Position numbers and translations under genes: made by a program | Sequence record: MT129652.1 | Origin: Escherichia phage MN01 | Length of the DNA: 64,000 nucleotides | Strand: one strand, 5' to 3' | Shown here: positions 6,175 through 40,959 of the stretch, one piece after another | How the letters are laid out: every line of letters begins with the position of its first letter | How positions within the stretch are numbered: position 1 is the stretch's first letter | The notes under the pieces: generated by a model | What the model was told of the DNA's origin: nothing | The model's input: only the letters and a program-made list of their open reading frames with translations | Databases searched by the model: none

Positions 6175-6211
6175 TACTCCATCAACTGATGATTAAATTA
6201 AGGATATTAAA

Positions 6212-6454
6212 ATGGAAACATTAATTGCAGGTACTGTTGTTCTTGGCGCTGGTTCTTTCTTCCTGGCTGCACTGGCATATTTTCTGCCGTGGATTATCGC
6301 ACTACTGCGAGGAACCAAAAGTAATTGCGGAATCTTCTTTGTTAACCTCCTGTTAGGTTGGACAATGGTCGGATGGTTTATTGCATTTATCTGGGCACTC
6401 GTTGCTGAGCGTAAATCAAACGCACAAGTAATTATCATCAAGGAAACCAAATGA
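6212..6454 (+). CDS. imm: superinfection immunity protein (Imm-like membrane protein)
   Basis: 80 aa, two TM helices, NLLLGWTxxGWxxAFIWAL motif; T4 imm position after gene 43. Confidence 0.65.
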   Translation: METLIAGTVVLGAGSFFLAALAYFLPWIIALLRGTKSNCGIFFVNLLLGWTMVGWFIAFIWALVAERKSNAQVIIIKETK

Positions 6455-12412: not shown

Positions 12413-12778
12413 TATATTCAAAGCGATTTATCTTATCTGAATTTTGAATTAGTTAAAAATAATGATGGTAATGCTCATTATGAATTCCGTGAACCCAGGT
12501 TTAATCAGGCGATTGGTTATATCATCGTTAAAGATGATGTTATCATAAAGGCTCGCTCATTTATGGTAATGAATGGGCCTTATGAAGATACTCGTGGCTA
12601 TCCATTTGATAAAAAGAATGTACGCGATTGTGCAGCATGGATAACCGGAAACCCTGAAATTGGGGTCATGTTATCTACTGAAGCAAATGACATTCTGGAT
12701 GCTGGCTGGGTTAAAGCTCAAGAACCGCCTACTGATATTGATGACCAGATTTTTAATGCTTTCATGAAGCGAGGTTAA
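12410..12778 (+). CDS. hypothetical protein
   Basis: 122 aa; C-terminus DDQIFNAFMKRG shared with previous ORF. Confidence 0.5.
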   Translation: MYIQSDLSYLNFELVKNNDGNAHYEFREPRFNQAIGYIIVKDDVIIKARSFMVMNGPYEDTRGYPFDKKNVRDCAAWITGNPEIGVMLSTEANDILDAGWVKAQEPPTDIDDQIFNAFMKRG

Positions 12779-12782
12779 TATG
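12740..12782. repeat. 43-bp gene-junction repeat, copy 2
   Basis: GATGACCAGATTTTTAATGCTTTCATGAAGCGAGGTTAATATG; 5 mismatches to copy 1. Confidence 0.7.
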
Positions 12783-12971
12783 ACTGCAATGTGTACGGGC
12801 TCTAAGATTTCGGTCTTCCAGATTTTTGAAGAATATGAAATCGTGTCGCAAGACCAAGAAGCAATCCATGTTATTGCTGATGATGGGGTTACCTGGATTA
12901 TTCCGTTGTATCATGAAGACACTTATGAAGTGACTGATGCAAATGGTGATAAAGCTATCTTCGTTGTATAA
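12780..12971 (+). CDS. hypothetical protein
   Basis: 63 aa, acidic. Confidence 0.45.
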   Translation: MTAMCTGSKISVFQIFEEYEIVSQDQEAIHVIADDGVTWIIPLYHEDTYEVTDANGDKAIFVV

Positions 12972-12974
12972 ATA
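12967..12974 (+). promoter_or_regulatory. TATAAATA late-promoter-like motif
   Basis: Overlaps stop of 12780..12971, 17 bp upstream of small ORF 12991. Confidence 0.3.
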
Positions 12975-12990
12975 GCGGAAAGGGGGTGTT

Positions 12991-13158
12991 ATGAAAACAT
13001 TCAAAGATTTTATCAACGAAGATATGGTTGCCGGTGATGCAGGCGGAAACCCAACTAATATCGCAACAGGTACCACTTCCGGGGCAGTTGTCAATAAAGG
13101 CCCTGAACAAATCCCATCAAAAAAGCGTAAGAACAAAGACGATAAACCTACAGTATAA
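12991..13158 (+). CDS. small hypothetical protein (55 aa)
   Basis: SD AGGGGG upstream; Gly/Thr-rich with basic tail; not in ORF track. Confidence 0.35.
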   Translation: MKTFKDFINEDMVAGDAGGNPTNIATGTTSGAVVNKGPEQIPSKKRKNKDDKPTV

Positions 13159-13190
13159 TGGTCCTTCGGGGCCATTGAAATGAGGAAACT

Positions 13191-14219
13191 ATGTCATATA
13201 TTGATAAAGAATTTGCAGTCAGAGCTTTATCGTATCAACCACGTTATAGAGAAGTCACCGGGAGCACATTTAAGGCAAACTGTCGTTGCAAGGTTTGCGG
13301 TGACTCTCAGAAAGATTCACACAAGGCCCGATTCTGGGCGTATACCAATCCGGCTGACGGTGCGGTTTACGTGAAATGTTTTAACTGTGACTACTCCACG
13401 CATATAAGCAAATACATAAAAGAGTTTGAGCCTGATTTACATCGGGAATATATGGTTGAGAAGTATAAGGAGAATGCCTTTGGCAGACAACGTAATGAAG
13501 TTGCAGAAACTCCGAAAGAACCAGAAAAAACTCCGGTTATTGAGCAACTTGCTTTTTGCGAAAGAATCGATACTTTACCAGAAGCGCATCCGATAGTTAA
13601 GTATGTAAAAAGTCGGTGTATTCCGAGCAATGTTTGGAACCGGTTATGGTTTACAAACAAATGGCCTGCATTAGTTAACTCCGTTAATCCTGGGACGTAT
13701 AAGAATGAAACGAATGAACCACGCTTGGTTATTCCTATCTTCAACGGCAAAAAAGAAATCGAATCTTTCCAAGGACGAGCTCTTCGCAAAGATGCACCAC
13801 AAAAATATATCACAATCAAAGCCCACCCAGAAGCTTCCAAAGTCTATGGTGTAGACAAGATTGACGAACGCAAGCGCGTGTGGGTAATGGAAGGTCCGAT
13901 TGATAGTTTGTTTATCCCTAACAGCATTGCGATAACCGGTGGAACATTAGCATTGGAAGCCGTTCCTTATGCAGAAACCCGAGTATGGGTAATGGACAAC
14001 GAGCCAAGACATCCTGATACGATTAAACGTATGAAGAAACTTGTTGAAGCCGGTGAAGCCGTTATGTTCTGGGACAATGCACCATGGCATACGAAAGACA
14101 TAAATGAGATGGTTAAATCAGAGGGTGCAACCCCTGAACAAATCGAATCATATATGGCCGATAACGTTACTCAAGGGCTGCTGGCGAGAATGCGACTTTC
14201 GAAGTACGCAAAAGTTTAG
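13191..14219 (+). CDS. 61: DNA primase gp61
   Basis: 342 aa as T4 gp61; N-terminal zinc ribbon CKVCGDS...CFNCDYS; synteny with 41. Confidence 0.9.
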   Translation: MSYIDKEFAVRALSYQPRYREVTGSTFKANCRCKVCGDSQKDSHKARFWAYTNPADGAVYVKCFNCDYSTHISKYIKEFEPDLHREYMVEKYKENAFGRQRNEVAETPKEPEKTPVIEQLAFCERIDTLPEAHPIVKYVKSRCIPSNVWNRLWFTNKWPALVNSVNPGTYKNETNEPRLVIPIFNGKKEIESFQGRALRKDAPQKYITIKAHPEASKVYGVDKIDERKRVWVMEGPIDSLFIPNSIAITGGTLALEAVPYAETRVWVMDNEPRHPDTIKRMKKLVEAGEAVMFWDNAPWHTKDINEMVKSEGATPEQIESYMADNVTQGLLARMRLSKYAKV

Positions 14220-14416
14220 GAAGGGATTCCGGTAAAGTAACCGATGATGGAATGGATATGTTCCATTGTGACCTGGGGTAAGTGTACCCCTTGTGATGCA
14301 GCGATAGGCACAACCAGTAAGTTCCACAGAAAAACATCAAGAGCTAAAAAGCCCATGATTAGTTTTTTGTCTTTCTTACTGGTTAATTTCCAAATCTGAT
14401 AGAATAATGTTCCCAT
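14216..14416 (-). CDS. small membrane protein
   Basis: Minus strand, 66 aa, shares LxWNxxVxPxA motif with upstream partner; converges on gene 61 stop. Confidence 0.45.
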   Translation of the reverse strand: MGTLFYQIWKLTSKKDKKLIMGFLALDVFLWNLLVVPIAASQGVHLPQVTMEHIHSIIGYFTGIPS

Positions 14417-14424
14417 AGTTCCAC

Positions 14425-14622
14425 CTATACAAGGCCGATTAATGCCAGTGAAACATCTACAACCGATTCGAGCGCGACGACTGGTAATATAATACCATAT
14501 GTCAATGCAACAGGAGCAACAATGAAGTTCCAGAGTAGAACTGAACAGAGCACCGAAAGGACCAGAATCGTTCGCTTACGACTGCCTTTGATGGCTTGAA
14601 TTAGACTAGATAGTTTTAGCAT
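14425..14622 (-). CDS. small membrane protein
   Basis: Minus strand; strong SD AAGGAGG 4 nt before ATG at 14622; hydrophobic; paralog of next ORF. Confidence 0.45.
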   Translation of the reverse strand: MLKLSSLIQAIKGSRKRTILVLSVLCSVLLWNFIVAPVALTYGIILPVVALESVVDVSLALIGLV

Positions 14623-14643
14623 ATATCCTCCTTTCTTGTATTT

Positions 14644-14668
14644 ATGCTTCAAACCAATACGATATAAT
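14644..14668 (+). promoter_or_regulatory. MotA-box middle promoter upstream of gene 56
   Basis: ATGCTTCA, 13 bp, TATAAT; in divergent region with minus-strand membrane genes. Confidence 0.45.
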
Positions 14669-14706
14669 TAACATACAAATAACATGAATTGATAAGGAAA
14701 AATATA

Positions 14707-15225
14707 ATGGCTCATTTTAACGAGTGTTCTCAACTGATTGCGGGTGTTGATAAAGCTGAAGAAGCTTATGACAATGCAATTATCGAAGGTACTGACCCGC
14801 TGCAGATTATGCTTGATATGCAGAAATCTTTGCAGGTCCGGTTGGCTACTGAAAAACCAGAATATAACTCACATCCAGATGAATTGGCTACTGCAGGTGA
14901 TGTTGTTACCTGGCTCCGCAACCAGAAAGATTATATTGATGATGAATTCCGCGAACTGATTACTGCATTAGGTGGCATGTCCAATGGCGAGAAAGCTGCC
15001 TCGGCCGTATGGAAACCATGGAAAGCACAACATGGTGAAATGCAGCAAACCCTGATTAACGATTTGTCTCCTGAAGACCAGCTCGAAATTAAATTCGAAA
15101 TGATTGATATCCTGCACTTTGTTCTGAACATGTTCCATGGTCTTGGTCTATCTGCAGAAGAAATCTTTAAACTGTATTACCTGAAAAACGCTGAGAACTT
15201 TGCTCGTCAGGACCGAGGTTATTAA
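14707..15225 (+). CDS. 56: dCTP pyrophosphatase gp56 (MazG-like)
   Basis: Matches recalled T4 gp56 (MAHFNEC, EFRELI, EIKFE, KNAENFARQD); MazG acidic motifs; adjacent to 61. Confidence 0.75.
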   Translation: MAHFNECSQLIAGVDKAEEAYDNAIIEGTDPLQIMLDMQKSLQVRLATEKPEYNSHPDELATAGDVVTWLRNQKDYIDDEFRELITALGGMSNGEKAASAVWKPWKAQHGEMQQTLINDLSPEDQLEIKFEMIDILHFVLNMFHGLGLSAEEIFKLYYLKNAENFARQDRGY

Positions 15226-23537: not shown

Positions 23538-24098
23538 ATGAAAGTTGAAGCTGGCGAAATCGTTCGCGTATCCAAAAAATCTCGTTCAAGAGCTGCTGGA
23601 CGTTTTGTTGAGGTTGTCAGTATTCGTGCTGATATTTTTGTTGACCATCCTGATAATGAAGTAAAGGTGCGTATCATTCCCAAAAATGGTCAGACTGAAA
23701 CTCAATTCGCTTATGTACGTGCTAAATTCCTGGAATCAACTGCTATCACTGCCACCAACCTCCCTGTGGTTGAAGAAGTTGAATCCCATGATGGATATGT
23801 GTGCGAAAGCAATGATATTCGTGGCGTAATTGCTCAAGACGTTGAAACCATTGACCAGTCTCATGTTGGGGTTGATTTTAAATGGAAATTGGGCAAAGGT
23901 GTCTTTTTTGTTTCACCTAAACCGTTTGAATATGTTGACGAACCTTTTGGTACTTATGAAACCACTAGCATGTCTGGTTACATCACAGACCAGTGGGTTG
24001 AAGAAGGCGTTAAGCTCTATAACATCGTGTTCCTTGGAACCTTTAAGGTGGTTCCTGAAAGCTTTATCGTTGAGTATGCTGATATTCATCGTGCCTAA
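23538..24098 (+). CDS. hypothetical protein (paralog family A)
   Basis: 186 aa; C-terminal TDQWVEEGVKLYNIVFLGTFKVVP; own promoter cassette. Confidence 0.55.
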   Translation: MKVEAGEIVRVSKKSRSRAAGRFVEVVSIRADIFVDHPDNEVKVRIIPKNGQTETQFAYVRAKFLESTAITATNLPVVEEVESHDGYVCESNDIRGVIAQDVETIDQSHVGVDFKWKLGKGVFFVSPKPFEYVDEPFGTYETTSMSGYITDQWVEEGVKLYNIVFLGTFKVVPESFIVEYADIHRA

Positions 24099-24146
24099 AT
24101 TATAAAAATGATAGGGTAATTTTGCCCTATCAATGAGGAGAATATT

Positions 24147-24371
24147 ATGTTTAATGAAGATTGTGTAACCACTTCCCTGACCGCTGAAGAGTTTTGGGAT
24201 ACTGCTGAAAGTGATAAAGTGATTGTGAAGAAAAACATCAATGAATTTCTTTGCACCACTGATATCATTTATGTGTATGCAGACAAAGACGCAGAACTAC
24301 CTAGCTATGCACTGTTCCGCGAAGAATCAGAAAATGGTACAGATTTTTGGAAGGAGATTTATAATGTCTAA
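24147..24371 (+). CDS. hypothetical protein
   Basis: 74 aa; SD GAGGAG. Confidence 0.45.
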   Translation: MFNEDCVTTSLTAEEFWDTAESDKVIVKKNINEFLCTTDIIYVYADKDAELPSYALFREESENGTDFWKEIYNV

Positions 24372-25657: not shown

Positions 25658-27490
25658 ATGATGATTAATAATGAAATTAAAGTACTCTCGGACGTTGAGC
25701 ATATCAAAAAACGTTCCGGGATGTATATTGGTTCCAGTTCAAATGAAGCGCATGAGCGATTCTTGTTTGGTGAATATAAGTCCGTAAGCTATGTTCCTGG
25801 TATTGTAAAACTGATTGATGAAATTATCGATAACTCTGTTGATGAAGCAATTCGCACCAGTTTTAAATTTGCCAATAAAATTGATGTCCAAATTAAAGAT
25901 AATCAGATTTCGGTTTCCGATAATGGCCGTGGTATTCCACAGGCAATGGTTACAGACCAAAACGGTGAACAAATCCCTGGCCCTGTTGCAGCATGGACTA
26001 TTCCAAAAGCTGGTGGTAACTTCGGCGATGATGCTGAACGTAAAACTGGCGGGATGAACGGCGTCGGGTCTTCTCTGACCAATATTTTCTCTGTATTGTT
26101 TACCGGGATTACCGCTGATGGTGCAAATGAAATCACCGTTAACTGCTCCAATGGTATGGAAAACAAATGTTGGTCGACTAAGAAATCAAAAGGTAAAGGT
26201 ACGACTGTTATATTTATTCCAGACTTTAGTCACTTTGAAGAAAATAGTCTGTCCCAGATTTATCTGGATATTACATTGGACCGTCTGCAGACTCTTGCGG
26301 TTGTTTATCCGGATATTCAGTTTACCTTTAATGGTAAAAAGGTTGATGGTAATTTCAAAAAGTTTGCCAAGCAATTCGGAACCGAAGTTGTTATCCAGGA
26401 AACTGATACAGTATCGATGGCCTTTACGACTAGTCCGGATGGTTTCCGTCAGTTGACTTATGTCAACAACATTCATACAAAGAATGGTGGGCACCACGTT
26501 GAATGTGTTATGGATGATATCTGTGAACATCTTCAACCAGCCATTAAACGCAAATATAAAGGCATTGAGGTGACCAAGGCACGAGTTAAAGAATGTCTCA
26601 CCATGCTTATGTTCATCCGCGATATGAGCAACATGCGATTTGATTCCCAGACTAAGGAGCGATTGACTTCTCCGGCTGGTGAAATTCGAAATCACATTAA
26701 GATTGATGCCAAGAAAATCGCGCAAGCTATTCTGAAAAATGAACCGCTGATTATGCCGATTGTTGAAGCTGCATTAGCCCGTAAATTGGCAGCAGAGAAA
26801 GCAGCAGAGACAAAGGCGAATAAGAAAGCTTCGAAGGCCAAGGTGCAGAAACATATCAAGGCAAACGAATGGGGTAATGATAAACTGGAAACGACTCTGT
26901 TCCTGACCGAAGGTGATTCCGCAACCGGTCCATTTATCAAGGTTCGCGACCGTGAATTGCAAGGTGCTTATCCGTTACGCGGTAAGTTCAAAAACACATG
27001 GGGTCTGAAAGCTGTTGACGTTATGAAGAACGCCGAAGCCTTTGATGTGTGTGCGATTACTGGTTTAACGATTGGACAACCGGCCGAGAATATGAATTAC
27101 CGAAACATTGCTATCATGACAGATGCGGATGTGGATGGTGTCGGTAGTATCTATCCATCGTTATTGGCGTTTTTCAGTAACTGGCCAGAGTTGTTCCATG
27201 AAGGACGAATTCGCTTTGTGAAAACTCCTGTTATTATTGCGCAGCTCAAAGATAAACAAGAATGGTTCTATTCTCTTCCTGACTATGAAGAAGCTAAGGA
27301 TAAACTTCCGAAGCACACCATCCGATATATCAAGGGGCTTGGTTCTCTGGAAGATGCCGAGTACAAACGCGTATTGCTCGAACCGGTATTCGAAGTTGTT
27401 GAATTACCTGACAACTGGAAAGAACTGTTCGAAATGCTCTTCGGTAAAGATTCCCAGCAGCGTAAAGATTGGATGAATGCGACACTATAA
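25658..27490 (+). CDS. 39: DNA topoisomerase II large subunit gp39 (GyrB-like; gene 39 and 60 in one reading frame)
   Basis: 610 aa; GHKL ATPase and TOPRIM (EGDSA) motifs; single uninterrupted ORF. Confidence 0.9.
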   Translation: MMINNEIKVLSDVEHIKKRSGMYIGSSSNEAHERFLFGEYKSVSYVPGIVKLIDEIIDNSVDEAIRTSFKFANKIDVQIKDNQISVSDNGRGIPQAMVTDQNGEQIPGPVAAWTIPKAGGNFGDDAERKTGGMNGVGSSLTNIFSVLFTGITADGANEITVNCSNGMENKCWSTKKSKGKGTTVIFIPDFSHFEENSLSQIYLDITLDRLQTLAVVYPDIQFTFNGKKVDGNFKKFAKQFGTEVVIQETDTVSMAFTTSPDGFRQLTYVNNIHTKNGGHHVECVMDDICEHLQPAIKRKYKGIEVTKARVKECLTMLMFIRDMSNMRFDSQTKERLTSPAGEIRNHIKIDAKKIAQAILKNEPLIMPIVEAALARKLAAEKAAETKANKKASKAKVQKHIKANEWGNDKLETTLFLTEGDSATGPFIKVRDRELQGAYPLRGKFKNTWGLKAVDVMKNAEAFDVCAITGLTIGQPAENMNYRNIAIMTDADVDGVGSIYPSLLAFFSNWPELFHEGRIRFVKTPVIIAQLKDKQEWFYSLPDYEEAKDKLPKHTIRYIKGLGSLEDAEYKRVLLEPVFEVVELPDNWKELFEMLFGKDSQQRKDWMNATL

Positions 27491-27493
27491 ATA
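27486..27493 (+). promoter_or_regulatory. TATAAATA late-promoter-like motif
   Basis: Overlaps gene 39 stop; followed by a palindrome and small ORF 27533. Confidence 0.3.
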
Positions 27494-27496
27494 GAT

Positions 27497-27516
27497 ACGG
27501 GAGAATATTCTCCCGT
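27497..27516. repeat. 20-bp perfect palindrome
   Basis: ACGGGAGAATATTCTCCCGT just after gene 39 stop, before small ORF 27533. Confidence 0.6.
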
Positions 27517-27532
27517 CTTATAGGAGAAGTCC

Positions 27533-27685
27533 ATGAAAAAGTGGTGGGTTACGTTGTCAAATGGCGAATACGGTTATCTGTGGGCCGATACTAAACCTCT
27601 GTTTGCATCCTTTGTCACCATTATGTGCGAGACTTGGGATGGCGAATACTATACCGCATATGGGCAAGTCTATAAAGTTGAGTAG
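27533..27685 (+). CDS. small hypothetical protein (50 aa)
   Basis: SD AGGAGAA upstream; Trp/Tyr-rich; followed by terminator; not in ORF track. Confidence 0.35.
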   Translation: MKKWWVTLSNGEYGYLWADTKPLFASFVTIMCETWDGEYYTAYGQVYKVE

Positions 27686-27687
27686 CC

Positions 27688-27714
27688 AAAAGGACCTTCG
27701 GGTCCTTTTTTATT
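27688..27714 (+). terminator. rho-independent terminator
   Basis: AAAAGGACC-ttcg-GGTCCTTTTTT. Confidence 0.7.
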
Positions 27715-27715
27715 A

Positions 27716-27744
27716 TGTACAAGCCACAAAAATTACGTTAAGAT
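27716..27744 (+). promoter_or_regulatory. early promoter cassette
   Basis: TGTACA right after terminator, 17 bp, TAAGAT. Confidence 0.45.
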
Positions 27745-27761
27745 ATCCTTGAGGTGAACAT

Positions 27762-37507: not shown

Positions 37508-37531
37508 TTTTAAAATATTTTAAAAAAGTAG

Positions 37532-37560
37532 TGTACATGACCCTTGACCTGATGCATAAT
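37532..37560 (+). promoter_or_regulatory. early promoter cassette
   Basis: AAAAGTAGTGTACA, 17 bp, CATAAT; leader CCATACTGAGTTACACAA. Confidence 0.55.
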
Positions 37561-37609
37561 GATTCCATACTGAGTTACACAATGAATCACAAAAACTTTG
37601 GAGAATAAA

Positions 37610-37825
37610 ATGTTTACTGCACAACAGAATGAAGGTCAAGAATACATTAACGCTAAATTCAAATCCAATAAAGAAGCTTGCTATTACTACTTTGACATGT
37701 TCAAACTGGCGAATTCTAAAGAAGAACGTAAACAAGCGATTGATGTTATTGTTTCCACTTCCCATATGAAACGTACTGTGGTACAATCATATGCATCAAA
37801 TTACATGAAATCTATTAAGGGATAA
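37610..37825 (+). CDS. hypothetical protein
   Basis: 71 aa from SD-preceded ATG; promoter cassette upstream. Confidence 0.5.
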   Translation: MFTAQQNEGQEYINAKFKSNKEACYYYFDMFKLANSKEERKQAIDVIVSTSHMKRTVVQSYASNYMKSIKG

Positions 37826-40033: not shown

Positions 40034-40309
40034 ATGACTAAATTTGAAATCGTTTCTGAAATTGTTACTGTAACTTCAATTTTGATTAAAACCGACCGGG
40101 AAGATATTACGATGAAGCGTGATGTATTTATCGCGTTTTTGAATGAGTTGGGATTGAGAAATGAGAATGGGAATGAGTTAAACAATGTATCGTTTAACAA
40201 GTTGTTTAAAAGTTTATCTGAAGATGAAATTGAACAAATTATTGAACAATTTAACGAAGGATTCGAAGATATACACCGTTATCTTATGATGTATACCTCC
40301 GGATTCTAA
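40034..40309 (+). CDS. asiA: anti-sigma70 factor AsiA
   Basis: 91 aa; IxTVxSILIK and FNEGFEDxxRYLxMYT match recalled T4 AsiA. Confidence 0.85.
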   Translation: MTKFEIVSEIVTVTSILIKTDREDITMKRDVFIAFLNELGLRNENGNELNNVSFNKLFKSLSEDEIEQIIEQFNEGFEDIHRYLMMYTSGF

Positions 40310-40959
40310 CGTGTACGCCCAAGCGTACGACCTGCTTGTCCACACATAGCAGAAAGCCTATCAAAACCAAGGTTAGGTTTTTGCTTATACCAGTACAGTG
40401 AGACTGTGCCTGCATAAACGTTTTCCAAATTAAAGAACGGGCAGCTGAACATATATGCGAAGCTGCTTTTTTTCTTTGTTGGTAAGAATACAGATTCCGT
40501 ACTGGATTCAAAATAATTACCATTAACCCCCGCCAAATATTCCGCCGAAGTTTTATCTATTGGAAACCCACCTAAATTTTTTTCGTCGACTGTATCAGGC
40601 AATATCCCCTCGTATCCCACCATATCCACAAAGTAGTTAAGGTTAGTTGGTCTAAAAGAATATATTGCTGTAAAGTCTGCCCCACTTGACGAGTGGACTA
40701 TCTGGATTTGCTCGATAGCTGCAATTTTAAATCTGTTATCCTGGTCTTGCCTTATCATTTCAGTGTATGAGGCATATGAAGCATCCCTGTACGCATCTAA
40801 AAGTGCATCACCTTTATACCAGATTACCGCCATTAAAAATAATAGAACAATAACTAGTACCCGGGAAAAAACAACTTTCCCGGTCGCATTATCTTTAAAA
40901 ATTCTATCAAGAAGTCCAAAAAGTAGGTCGGGTATTGATATTCCTACTTTTGGTTCCAT
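40306..40959 (-). CDS. t: holin T
   Basis: 217 aa (T4 T 218); LLFGxLDRxFKDNATGKV and FVDxxxYEGxLP match recalled T4 holin; TATAAATA upstream. Confidence 0.9.
   Translation of the reverse strand: MEPKVGISIPDLLFGLLDRIFKDNATGKVVFSRVLVIVLLFLMAVIWYKGDALLDAYRDASYASYTEMIRQDQDNRFKIAAIEQIQIVHSSSGADFTAIYSFRPTNLNYFVDMVGYEGILPDTVDEKNLGGFPIDKTSAEYLAGVNGNYFESSTESVFLPTKKKSSFAYMFSCPFFNLENVYAGTVSLYWYKQKPNLGFDRLSAMCGQAGRTLGRTR

Follow-up and report, generated by a model that had tools for sequence, protein, structure and literature searches.

Tandem small membrane-protein genes antisense to the primase gene end of Escherichia phage MN01, probably late-expressed and with a remote resemblance to three-transmembrane holins

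Why should two short genes run against the early genes that surround them in a T4-type phage? The question is raised by Escherichia phage MN01 (sequence record MT129652.1), of which a stretch of 64,000 nucleotides, hereafter the window, was analysed. Two open reading frames (ORFs), termed ORF-A and ORF-B, lie there in tandem on the minus strand and fill the 487-bp interval between gene 61 (DNA primase) and gene 56 (dCTPase). Taken as a whole, the evidence gives about an even chance that they encode late inner-membrane mini-proteins derived from three-transmembrane (3TM) holins and acting as accessory modulators of permeabilisation or lysis timing. A preliminary description made from the letters of this DNA had reported the tandem pair of 65 and 66 amino acids (aa) after the primase gene, a strong Shine-Dalgarno (SD) sequence for each ORF, and a shared LxWNxxVxPxA motif. 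Both ORFs and both SD sequences (AAGGAGG and AGGTGG) were located at that place, and the motif reads LLWNFIVAPVA and FLWNLLVVPIA in the two proteins. The ORFs are separated by 8 nt, and the stop codon of ORF-B overlaps that of the convergent gene 61 by 4 nt (14216-14219), as had been described. The account of the anatomy, with paralogous small membrane-protein genes lying antisense and abutting gene 61, was correct in all its elements.

Both ORFs are genuine genes under purifying selection, as their conservation and pattern of substitution show. Each matches PHROG 2024, a family annotated as of unknown function, with E-values of 2.3e-26 for ORF-A (residues 1-65 of 65) and 1.1e-27 for ORF-B (residues 1-64 of 66). 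The two proteins are 38% identical to each other over 42 aa, and their homologues fall into an A-type and a B-type. Pairs of B-type sequences have dN/dS ratios (Nei-Gojobori method) of 0.06-0.2, and A-type pairs have ratios of 0.18-0.46. In comparisons across genera, pS reaches 0.8-0.96, with synonymous sites near saturation, against a pN of 0.15-0.2. Third codon positions carry three to nine times more changes than second positions (16, 5, and 45 changes at the three positions in one example), and the core of the cross-genus alignments contains no gaps. W31, N32, P37, G43, P47, and V49 are invariant in an alignment of 11 sequences, and the tryptophan, the asparagine, and both prolines are still invariant when 27 sequences are aligned.

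The preliminary description had considered that the ORFs might not be conserved in any relative and had proposed a search near the primase genes of other T4-type phages. Such a search clearly recovered homologues, which lie in antisense orientation next to the stop of gene 61 in about 800 Tevenvirinae records. A tblastn search gave 694 phage records with A-type homologues and 126 with B-type homologues, and almost all of these homologues are full length. An antisense gene adjoins gene 61 in 12 genera, among them Tequatro-, Mosig-, Dhaka-, Gapriver-, and Marfavirus as well as the Kanagawa-, Mosuguk-, Gelderland-, and Moon-type phages. All annotated relatives that were examined carry it in antisense orientation, convergent with the 3' end of gene 61; these are T4, T2, the Mosigviruses phiC120 and PhAPEC2, Dhakavirus JS10, Marfavirus F48, the Kanagawaviruses Q7622, Kosakonia 305, and PEi20, Mosugukvirus PM2, the Gelderlandviruses SEA1 and STML-198, and the Moon-like Citrobacter phages. 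In phiC120 and PhAPEC2, the homologue is labelled "similar to RB69ORF029w"; RB69ORF029w and the T4 ORF belong to PHROG 2024 and occupy the same genome position. In T4, an intact ORF of 66 aa (AF158101.6, 17738-17938, plus strand), preceded by AAGGAGG and a GATAAATA box, lies inside the 309-bp gap between dam and 61, where it is unannotated in both AF158101.6 and NC_000866.4. The T2 record and many relatives annotate the homologue as hypothetical, and the exact T4 protein sequence is present in the protein collection solely from raw-read assemblies. In the record of T4_ev240 (LR597657.1), a 1-nt deletion in an A-run shifts the frame after codon 18, which is either a real loss or a homopolymer sequencing error. 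No such gene follows gene 61 in Acinetobacter phage Ac42, Aeromonas phage 44RR (Biquartavirus), Pseudotevenvirus leB, or Krischvirus JEP8, where gene 61 is followed by a same-strand gene within 0-131 bp. Enterobacterial Tevenvirinae, including T4, possess the gene almost universally. An exhaustive profile search found 17 cluster representatives in 1.84 billion proteins; therefore, the family is narrow.

The two types are distributed unevenly. The A-type is found in Tequatrovirus (T4, T2) and Mosigvirus, and the B-type in Dhaka-, Marfa-, Kanagawa-, and Mosugukvirus. Most genera are single-copy, unlike the window, which carries both types in tandem; the two occur together in Gapriverviruses only. 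The region in the window resembles that of the Gaprivervirus phages VR20, SP18, and TH41, with 92-95% DNA identity, and ORF-A has 100% identity with a protein recorded for phage MN01. ORF-B is 77% identical to its JS10 counterpart, compared with 68% for the primase; for ORF-A, identity with the proteins of T4 and Mosigvirus amounts to 48-51%, compared with 59-61% for the primase. This divergence is roughly in line with that of the primase, and therefore both copies are old. In SP18, only the last 31 codons of ORF-B are left (L002:4117-4212) and ORF-A is intact. In VR20, the N-terminal part of ORF-B is lost, and several other Gaprivervirus records match only 45-64% of it. The single copy of SP18 was also considered as an A/B hybrid formed by recombination at the WN motifs, which was rejected given the intact ORF-A and the 31 remaining B codons.

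The expression class of the pair is suggested by a box upstream of ORF-A. The motif NATAAATA precedes the SD sequence in nearly every lineage, at a gap of 5 nt in the window and 5-16 nt elsewhere (about 10 nt in most); the exceptions are Gelderland- and Moon-type phages, which have TTAAATA in its place. A perfect TATAAATA is carried by Marfavirus and two Kanagawaviruses; Dhakavirus, Mosigvirus, and some Tequatroviruses have AATAAATA, T4, T2, and PM2 have GATAAATA, and the window phage and PEi20 have CATAAATA. The sequence around it is otherwise diverged or unalignable among lineages. T4 late genes are transcribed once DNA replication has begun, in dependence on gp55, gp33, and gp45, from a box located about 6 nt before the transcription start and lacking a -35 element. 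TATAAATA at -13 to -6 is the T4 late promoter, in which the first T is variable and position -13 is poorly conserved in other T4-like phages (PMC2988020, PMC1524935); A occurs at -13 in 9 of 50 T4 late promoters (PMC2988020). Within the window, NATAAATA is under-represented: both strands together have 12 sites, whereas approximately 29 would be expected given the base composition. Six of these sites lead into an SD sequence and ATG, namely those ahead of soc, gp34, gp36, the t holin gene, a 63-aa ORF, and ORF-A. The spacing between box and SD is alike in ORF-A (5 nt) and t (7 nt). Because the late-promoter box is conserved, ORF-A and ORF-B are probable late genes and not part of the early programme, and they are probably carried on one short-leader mRNA. 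An mRNA driven by CATAAATA would start around 14633.

ORF-B has no promoter box of its own, and none lies in the gap between the two ORFs. Since its SD sequence overlaps the stop codon of ORF-A, the gap is 8 nt long, and a box is lacking, the arrangement suggests that ORF-B is co-transcribed with and translationally coupled to ORF-A. The 5' region of the pair had been described as shared with a MotA-box promoter of gene 56, and a MotA box TTATGCTTCA with a TATAAT was indeed found there as a motif match. The late box and the MotA box, on opposite strands, overlap by 5 nt, and the MotA/-10 site of gene 56 is kept in VR20, SP18, VR25, and VR26. At the level of motifs, the two sites constitute a predicted compact, back-to-back pair of middle and late promoters.

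Both proteins have the features of small membrane proteins. The N-terminus is basic, with a net charge of +5 in ORF-A and +4 in ORF-B over the first 20 residues, and the best 19-residue hydropathy windows are residues 18-36 of ORF-A (2.4) and 20-38 of ORF-B (2.1). In ORF-A, a transmembrane helix spans approximately residues 18-41, and residues 44-65 form another hydrophobic segment, dotted with acidic residues. ORF-B has one clear transmembrane helix at about 20-40, followed by a C-terminal segment of much lower hydrophobicity with three histidines. The positive-inside rule would place the N-terminus in the cytoplasm. An AlphaFold (AF2) model of ORF-A (pLDDT 68) consists of helices 14-41 and 51-62 joined by the conserved GxxLPxV loop. 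When structures were searched against viral models, only family members were found, and all others had E > 2.

A link to holins was obtained through intermediates. Divergent family members recovered proteins of 92-99 aa encoded on uncultured phage contigs and at prophage ends in Escherichia, Serratia, Yersinia, Pectobacterium, Erwinia, Pantoea, and related genera. These proteins match PHROG 2024 with E-values of 1e-7 to 1e-11 and score 12.7-22.3 bits on PF11351 (GTA_holin_3TM), below its gathering score of 24.8; two of the four tested match phrog_3427 "holin" (E 0.003-0.05). They have a homologous transmembrane and C-terminal region but, unlike the T4-like proteins, possess one more helix at the N-terminus and a polar linker containing a TWRQ motif. 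Their genes also differ in position, being not antisense to a primase gene but placed in a conserved module approximately 1.4 kb from a GH24 lysozyme gene. A tblastn search of cultured phages with a 92-aa protein found only the T4-like small ORFs, and the divergent representatives P0093 and P0097 gave no informative matches in cultured phages. The module at prophage ends runs from a tail fibre gene through a gene for an 82-106 aa transmembrane and coiled-coil protein, the GH24 lysozyme gene, and three ORFs (142-164, 188-202, and 103-124 aa) to the gene for the 92-99 aa protein. In L037, L054, and L062 the lysozyme gene runs on the opposite strand, and in L053 and L058 it shares the strand of the module.

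For comparison with PF11351, reference proteins were picked from viral contigs by the motif AGWRPxxGW, which we take to be characteristic of that family. There were 119 candidates, of which 101 near-full-length proteins entered the profile. A verification sample of six was run on Pfam, and four of these on PHROGs; PF11351 gave 41-99 bits, and phrog_3427 was matched at E 1e-25 to 1e-34. Eight of 12 sampled reference genes abut endolysin genes of four unrelated families (GH108, Hydrolase_2, Peptidase_M15, and phage-lysozyme), and such an association with diverse endolysins is a classic holin signature. By hhalign, the T4-like family aligns with the 101-protein set at a probability of 90.4% (E 1.4e-6, 51 columns), the prophage group aligns with the same set at 97.2% over its full length (E 3.9e-11, 94 columns), and the T4-like family aligns with the prophage group at 96.9% (E 1.5e-10). 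The merged profile reaches 95.9% against the PF11351 set. In controls with reversed targets or queries and with 30 column-shuffled queries, scores stayed at 10-19 and no probability exceeded 5.8%. The aligned part runs from the second hydrophobic helix of the holin through the loop to its last helix, (W/Y)N(F/Y)xxxP ... LPx(V/L)xx(D/E) ... xLGL. It starts at template column 67-72 of 151, and the window proteins begin about 17 residues before their transmembrane helix.

ORF-A and ORF-B thus resemble 3TM holins of PF11351/phrog_3427, such as the Rhodobacter capsulatus GTA holin rcc00556, in a common membrane core (hhalign 90-97%), made of the (W/Y)N(F/Y)xxxP helix, the LPx(V/L)xx(D/E) loop, and a final helix that ends in a glycine motif of small residues. 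Like these holins, they are small phage-encoded proteins of the inner membrane for which late expression is expected. They differ in length (61-74 aa in the T4-like family against about 130 aa), in lacking the N-terminal amphipathic or helical domain, the AGWRPxxGW motif, and the basic RTxEKxKG tail, in falling below the Pfam threshold, in having no endolysin gene beside them, and in belonging to a phage that already has a T-type holin. Both proteins belong to PHROG 2024 and, going by the features that define PF11351, not to the latter family. They are most simply read as a truncated, diverged offshoot of the 3TM holins. The preliminary description had named superinfection exclusion, holin-like membrane perturbation, and toxin activity as candidate functions. 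Holin-like perturbation gained ground through the profile similarity to PF11351, and an exclusion or toxin role obtained no support in any test.

A scheme can be proposed on this basis. A gp55-type late promoter at CATAAATA, placed back to back with the middle promoter of gene 56, would drive late-only transcription, and the antisense placement would keep the ORFs silent while early and middle transcripts cross the other strand. ORF-B would follow ORF-A on one mRNA, probably with translational coupling. From a 3TM holin, the proteins would have retained the penultimate helix with (W/Y)N(F/Y)xxxP, the periplasmic LPxVxxE loop, and the last hydrophobic helix, and they would have lost the N-terminal domain with AGWRPxxGW and the basic C-terminal tail. 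Late in infection, they would insert into the inner membrane with the N-terminus inside and would modulate permeabilisation or lysis timing in an accessory manner, as a weak pinholin-like factor or as a regulator that interacts with a holin.

Several points weigh against a late, holin-derived role. The box in the window is a variant, with C at -13. Neither window protein matches PF11351 or any other Pfam family, even at E <= 1, or NCBIfam, where only noise was returned. Single members score E 0.002-0.8 against a PF11351-like hidden Markov model, in all but one divergent member, and because these single-sequence scores are weak, the holin link rests on profile-profile comparison of short hydrophobic segments. 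The AGWRPxxGW motif and the N-terminal domain are absent from the window proteins; in place of the three hydrophobic segments of PF11351, ORF-A has two and ORF-B has one clear segment. No endolysin gene adjoins them, the neighbours being primase and dCTPase. The gene appears to be accessory and not core, as it is missing after gene 61 in distant T4-like phages, and ORF-B seems dispensable when ORF-A is present because it is degraded in sister Gapriverviruses. The family used as a reference has its own weakness. ICP1 TeaA, which collapses the proton-motive force, was assigned to PF11351 by its authors via remote homology (PMC7182436). A link through TeaA was tried and rejected, since ICP1 ORF137 gave no match to PF11351 by hmmscan (E <= 10), by the PF11351-like model, or by the hhalign profiles. 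The experimental basis of PF11351 is thin, with TeaA failing PF11351 in these scans and the support for the GTA holin being genetic and contextual. Finally, holins in general build up in the inner membrane, collapse the proton-motive force, release the endolysin, and respond to energy poisons as triggers. T4 t mutants reportedly neither lyse nor stop respiring, a result said to go back to Josslin in 1970, and because of this the T4 orthologue would not be an autonomous holin that collapses the membrane by itself during infection. In keeping with an accessory role, the window phage has a canonical T holin, and this protein, not ORF-A or ORF-B, is predicted to be its main holin.

Lysis and lysis inhibition of T4 are textbook cases whose list of parts (T, E, the spanins, RI, and RIII) is regarded as complete. 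The holin T and the antiholins RI and RIII are late, T and RI are membrane proteins, and together they determine when lysis occurs in this phage group; ORF-A and the t gene of the window share one architecture from promoter box to SD. The mini-proteins differ from them in having no sequence similarity, and T has a large periplasmic domain (PF11031). To our knowledge, no genetic link exists between the ORF and r phenotypes. It is a tentative and rather doubtful proposal that the gene is an unrecognised component of T4 lysis, namely a late, holin-derived mini-protein that tunes or gates permeabilisation. Under this proposal, it may act in one of three ways, by priming or delaying the triggering of the T holin, by taking part in lysis inhibition, or by neutralising the 3TM holins of prophages.

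Other functions were weighed in the same way. The proteins could serve in superinfection exclusion or envelope protection, blocking DNA injection or lysis from without as Imm and Sp do, with the holin similarity reflecting mere ancestry. Small membrane proteins with the N-terminus inside are used for exclusion in this phage family, and Imm and Sp, which are also small proteins of the envelope, have their genes in the same region among the early genes, with Imm present in the window and spackle annotated just upstream in relatives. The accessory nature and variable copy number of the family are also typical of phage-phage competition genes. However, T4 exclusion proteins such as Imm and Sp are made early and are encoded on the plus strand with the early genes, whereas ORF-A and ORF-B are antisense with a conserved late-class box. 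In Pfam and NCBIfam scans, both ORFs lacked similarity to Imm (PF14373) or other exclusion families, and holins are the only remote relatives that could be detected. An exclusion role is considered unlikely.

A decoy or antagonist of foreign holins is another reading, in which the holin fragment would poison the 3TM holins of prophages or membrane-acting defences and thereby prevent premature lysis. The nearest relatives outside the T4-like phages are the 92-99 aa proteins at prophage ends of the same host group, and the similarity is confined to the membrane-embedded part. N-terminally altered holin forms serve as antiholins elsewhere, as lambda S107 and phage 21 S71 do. The idea is purely inferential, however, and late timing seems ill-suited to countering early abortive lysis; it is judged quite improbable.

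A role at the RNA level is very improbable. A late transcript running antisense into gene 61 would lower primase mRNA late in infection, and read-through of early transcripts would be blocked in the opposite direction, with the ORFs being secondary. The overlapping convergent stops and the want of any terminator-like site (a promoter and terminator scan found no convincing terminator between gene 61 and ORF-B) imply that a late transcript should run antisense into gene 61, and T4 offers a precedent, as both strands of its DNA are transcribed at different times at several sites (PMC2988020). The dN/dS values down to 0.06, saturated synonymous sites, invariant W, N, and P residues, and conserved strong SD sequences nevertheless show that selection acts on the protein. 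There is also no Rfam match in 13800-15000 apart from a chance miRNA hit (E 0.71), and the folding signal of the 3' junction is weak (z-score -2.3). An antisense effect could arise as a by-product of expressing the proteins. Lastly, the possibility of chance ORFs, a non-coding spacer that happens to be open on the minus strand, is refuted by the conservation data. With this base composition, an open frame of 65 codons is expected with a probability of about 1% per position, and the T4 reference annotation lacks the ORF, but at >=80% coverage the ORF is intact in 686 of the 694 phage records with the A-type and in 106 of the 126 with the B-type, the PHROG matches reach E ~1e-27 with a coding-type substitution pattern across codon positions, and the ribosome-binding site and promoter box are conserved.

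The homologues are named "hypothetical protein" in hundreds of genomes. All proteins returned by word-index searches were close relatives, and all but three, which are clearly mislabelled, bore that same name. Some family members (among P0060, P0086, and P0072) are entered under names like "DNA packaging ATPase" or "dCTP pyrophosphatase", which probably slipped from neighbouring genes. Two entries, UniProt A0A482MZV5 of phage OE5505 and one of phage EAWsc9, are labelled "Holin" or "holin family protein"; these were the only functional labels seen, and no publication was found behind them. Literature searches on RB69ORF029w, on unannotated small ORFs of T4, and on antisense or late T4 transcripts found nothing relevant. 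Four elements appear to be new: the connection with PF11351 by way of prophage intermediates, the late-promoter box conserved among lineages, the annotation gap in T4, and the A/B tandem with natural decay of B.

A conserved membrane-protein gene with a late-type box and a resemblance to holins thus occupies an unannotated gap of T4 and is carried by hundreds of relatives used for phage therapy. If the gene affects lysis timing, it would be a missing piece of the T4 lysis system and the first truncated member of a holin family kept as a regulator beside a main holin of a different family. A position antisense to the genes of an early transcription unit can restrict a potentially harmful membrane protein strictly to the late phase, and the tandem of A and B together with the sister phages degraded in B offers a natural comparison set. 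If a knockout has no phenotype, the finding shrinks to a correction of the T4 annotation and a remote-homology note for PHROG 2024.

The coordinates of the features are collected in Table 1.

Table 1. Features of the window discussed in the text (positions are those of the window)
Feature	Position	Strand	Remarks
ORF-A	14425-14622	minus	65 aa from ATG; stop TAG 14425-14427; A-type small membrane protein
ORF-B	14216-14416	minus	66 aa; stop TAA 14216-14218; B-type paralogue of ORF-A
ORF-A SD AAGGAGG	14627-14633	minus	4 nt before ATG; kept in all lineages
ORF-B SD AGGTGG	14421-14426	minus	overlaps ORF-A stop codon 14425-14427
Late-promoter-like box CATAAATA	14639-14646	minus	5 nt upstream of ORF-A SD
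Middle-promoter-like site of gene 56	14642-14668	plus	MotA box TTATGCTTCA 14642-14651, 11-nt spacer, -10 TATAAT 14663-14668; consensus match only
Gene 61, DNA primase	13191-14219	plus	convergent neighbour; phrog_47, E 1e-93
Gene 56, dCTPase/NTP pyrophosphohydrolase	14707-15225	plus	divergent neighbour; phrog_173, E 2.7e-46
T holin	40309-40959	minus	PF11031, 224 bits; own TATAAATA; gp38 adhesin adjacent
Imm superinfection-immunity protein	6212-6451	plus	PF14373, 64 bits
NATAAATA sites (12)	35-, 12967+, 14646-, 15509+, 26218-, 27486+, 40132-, 40985-, 45836-, 50995-, 53055+, 58286+	both	

ORF-A and ORF-B had been described as the sole minus-strand genes in a plus-strand early region, and this holds from position 1 to about 40.3 kb, where all other credible genes are on the plus strand. 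Four more minus-strand ORFs of 57-137 aa occur in that part (6193-6438, 12762-13175, 24095-24268, and 37520-37765). None of the four has a PHROG match, and they looked spurious; at least two of them (6193-6438 and 12762-13175) overlap plus-strand ORFs, and imm is encoded on the plus strand at the place of the first.

The interval between genes 61 and 56 is also a hot spot for mobile insertions, as noted in Klebsiella phage F48, Kosakonia phage 305, and records RZ and DK-13. Homing endonuclease genes lie between the two genes in several phages, and gene 56 of F48 is annotated as two pieces around a 250-aa ORF. On the plus strand of the window, 27486-27560 contains a perfect TATAAATA, an inverted repeat ACGGGAGAA-tat-TCTCCCGT, and an SD sequence ahead of the 63-aa ORF (27561-27752), which makes the site a possible late promoter, with a hairpin in its leader, within the early block.

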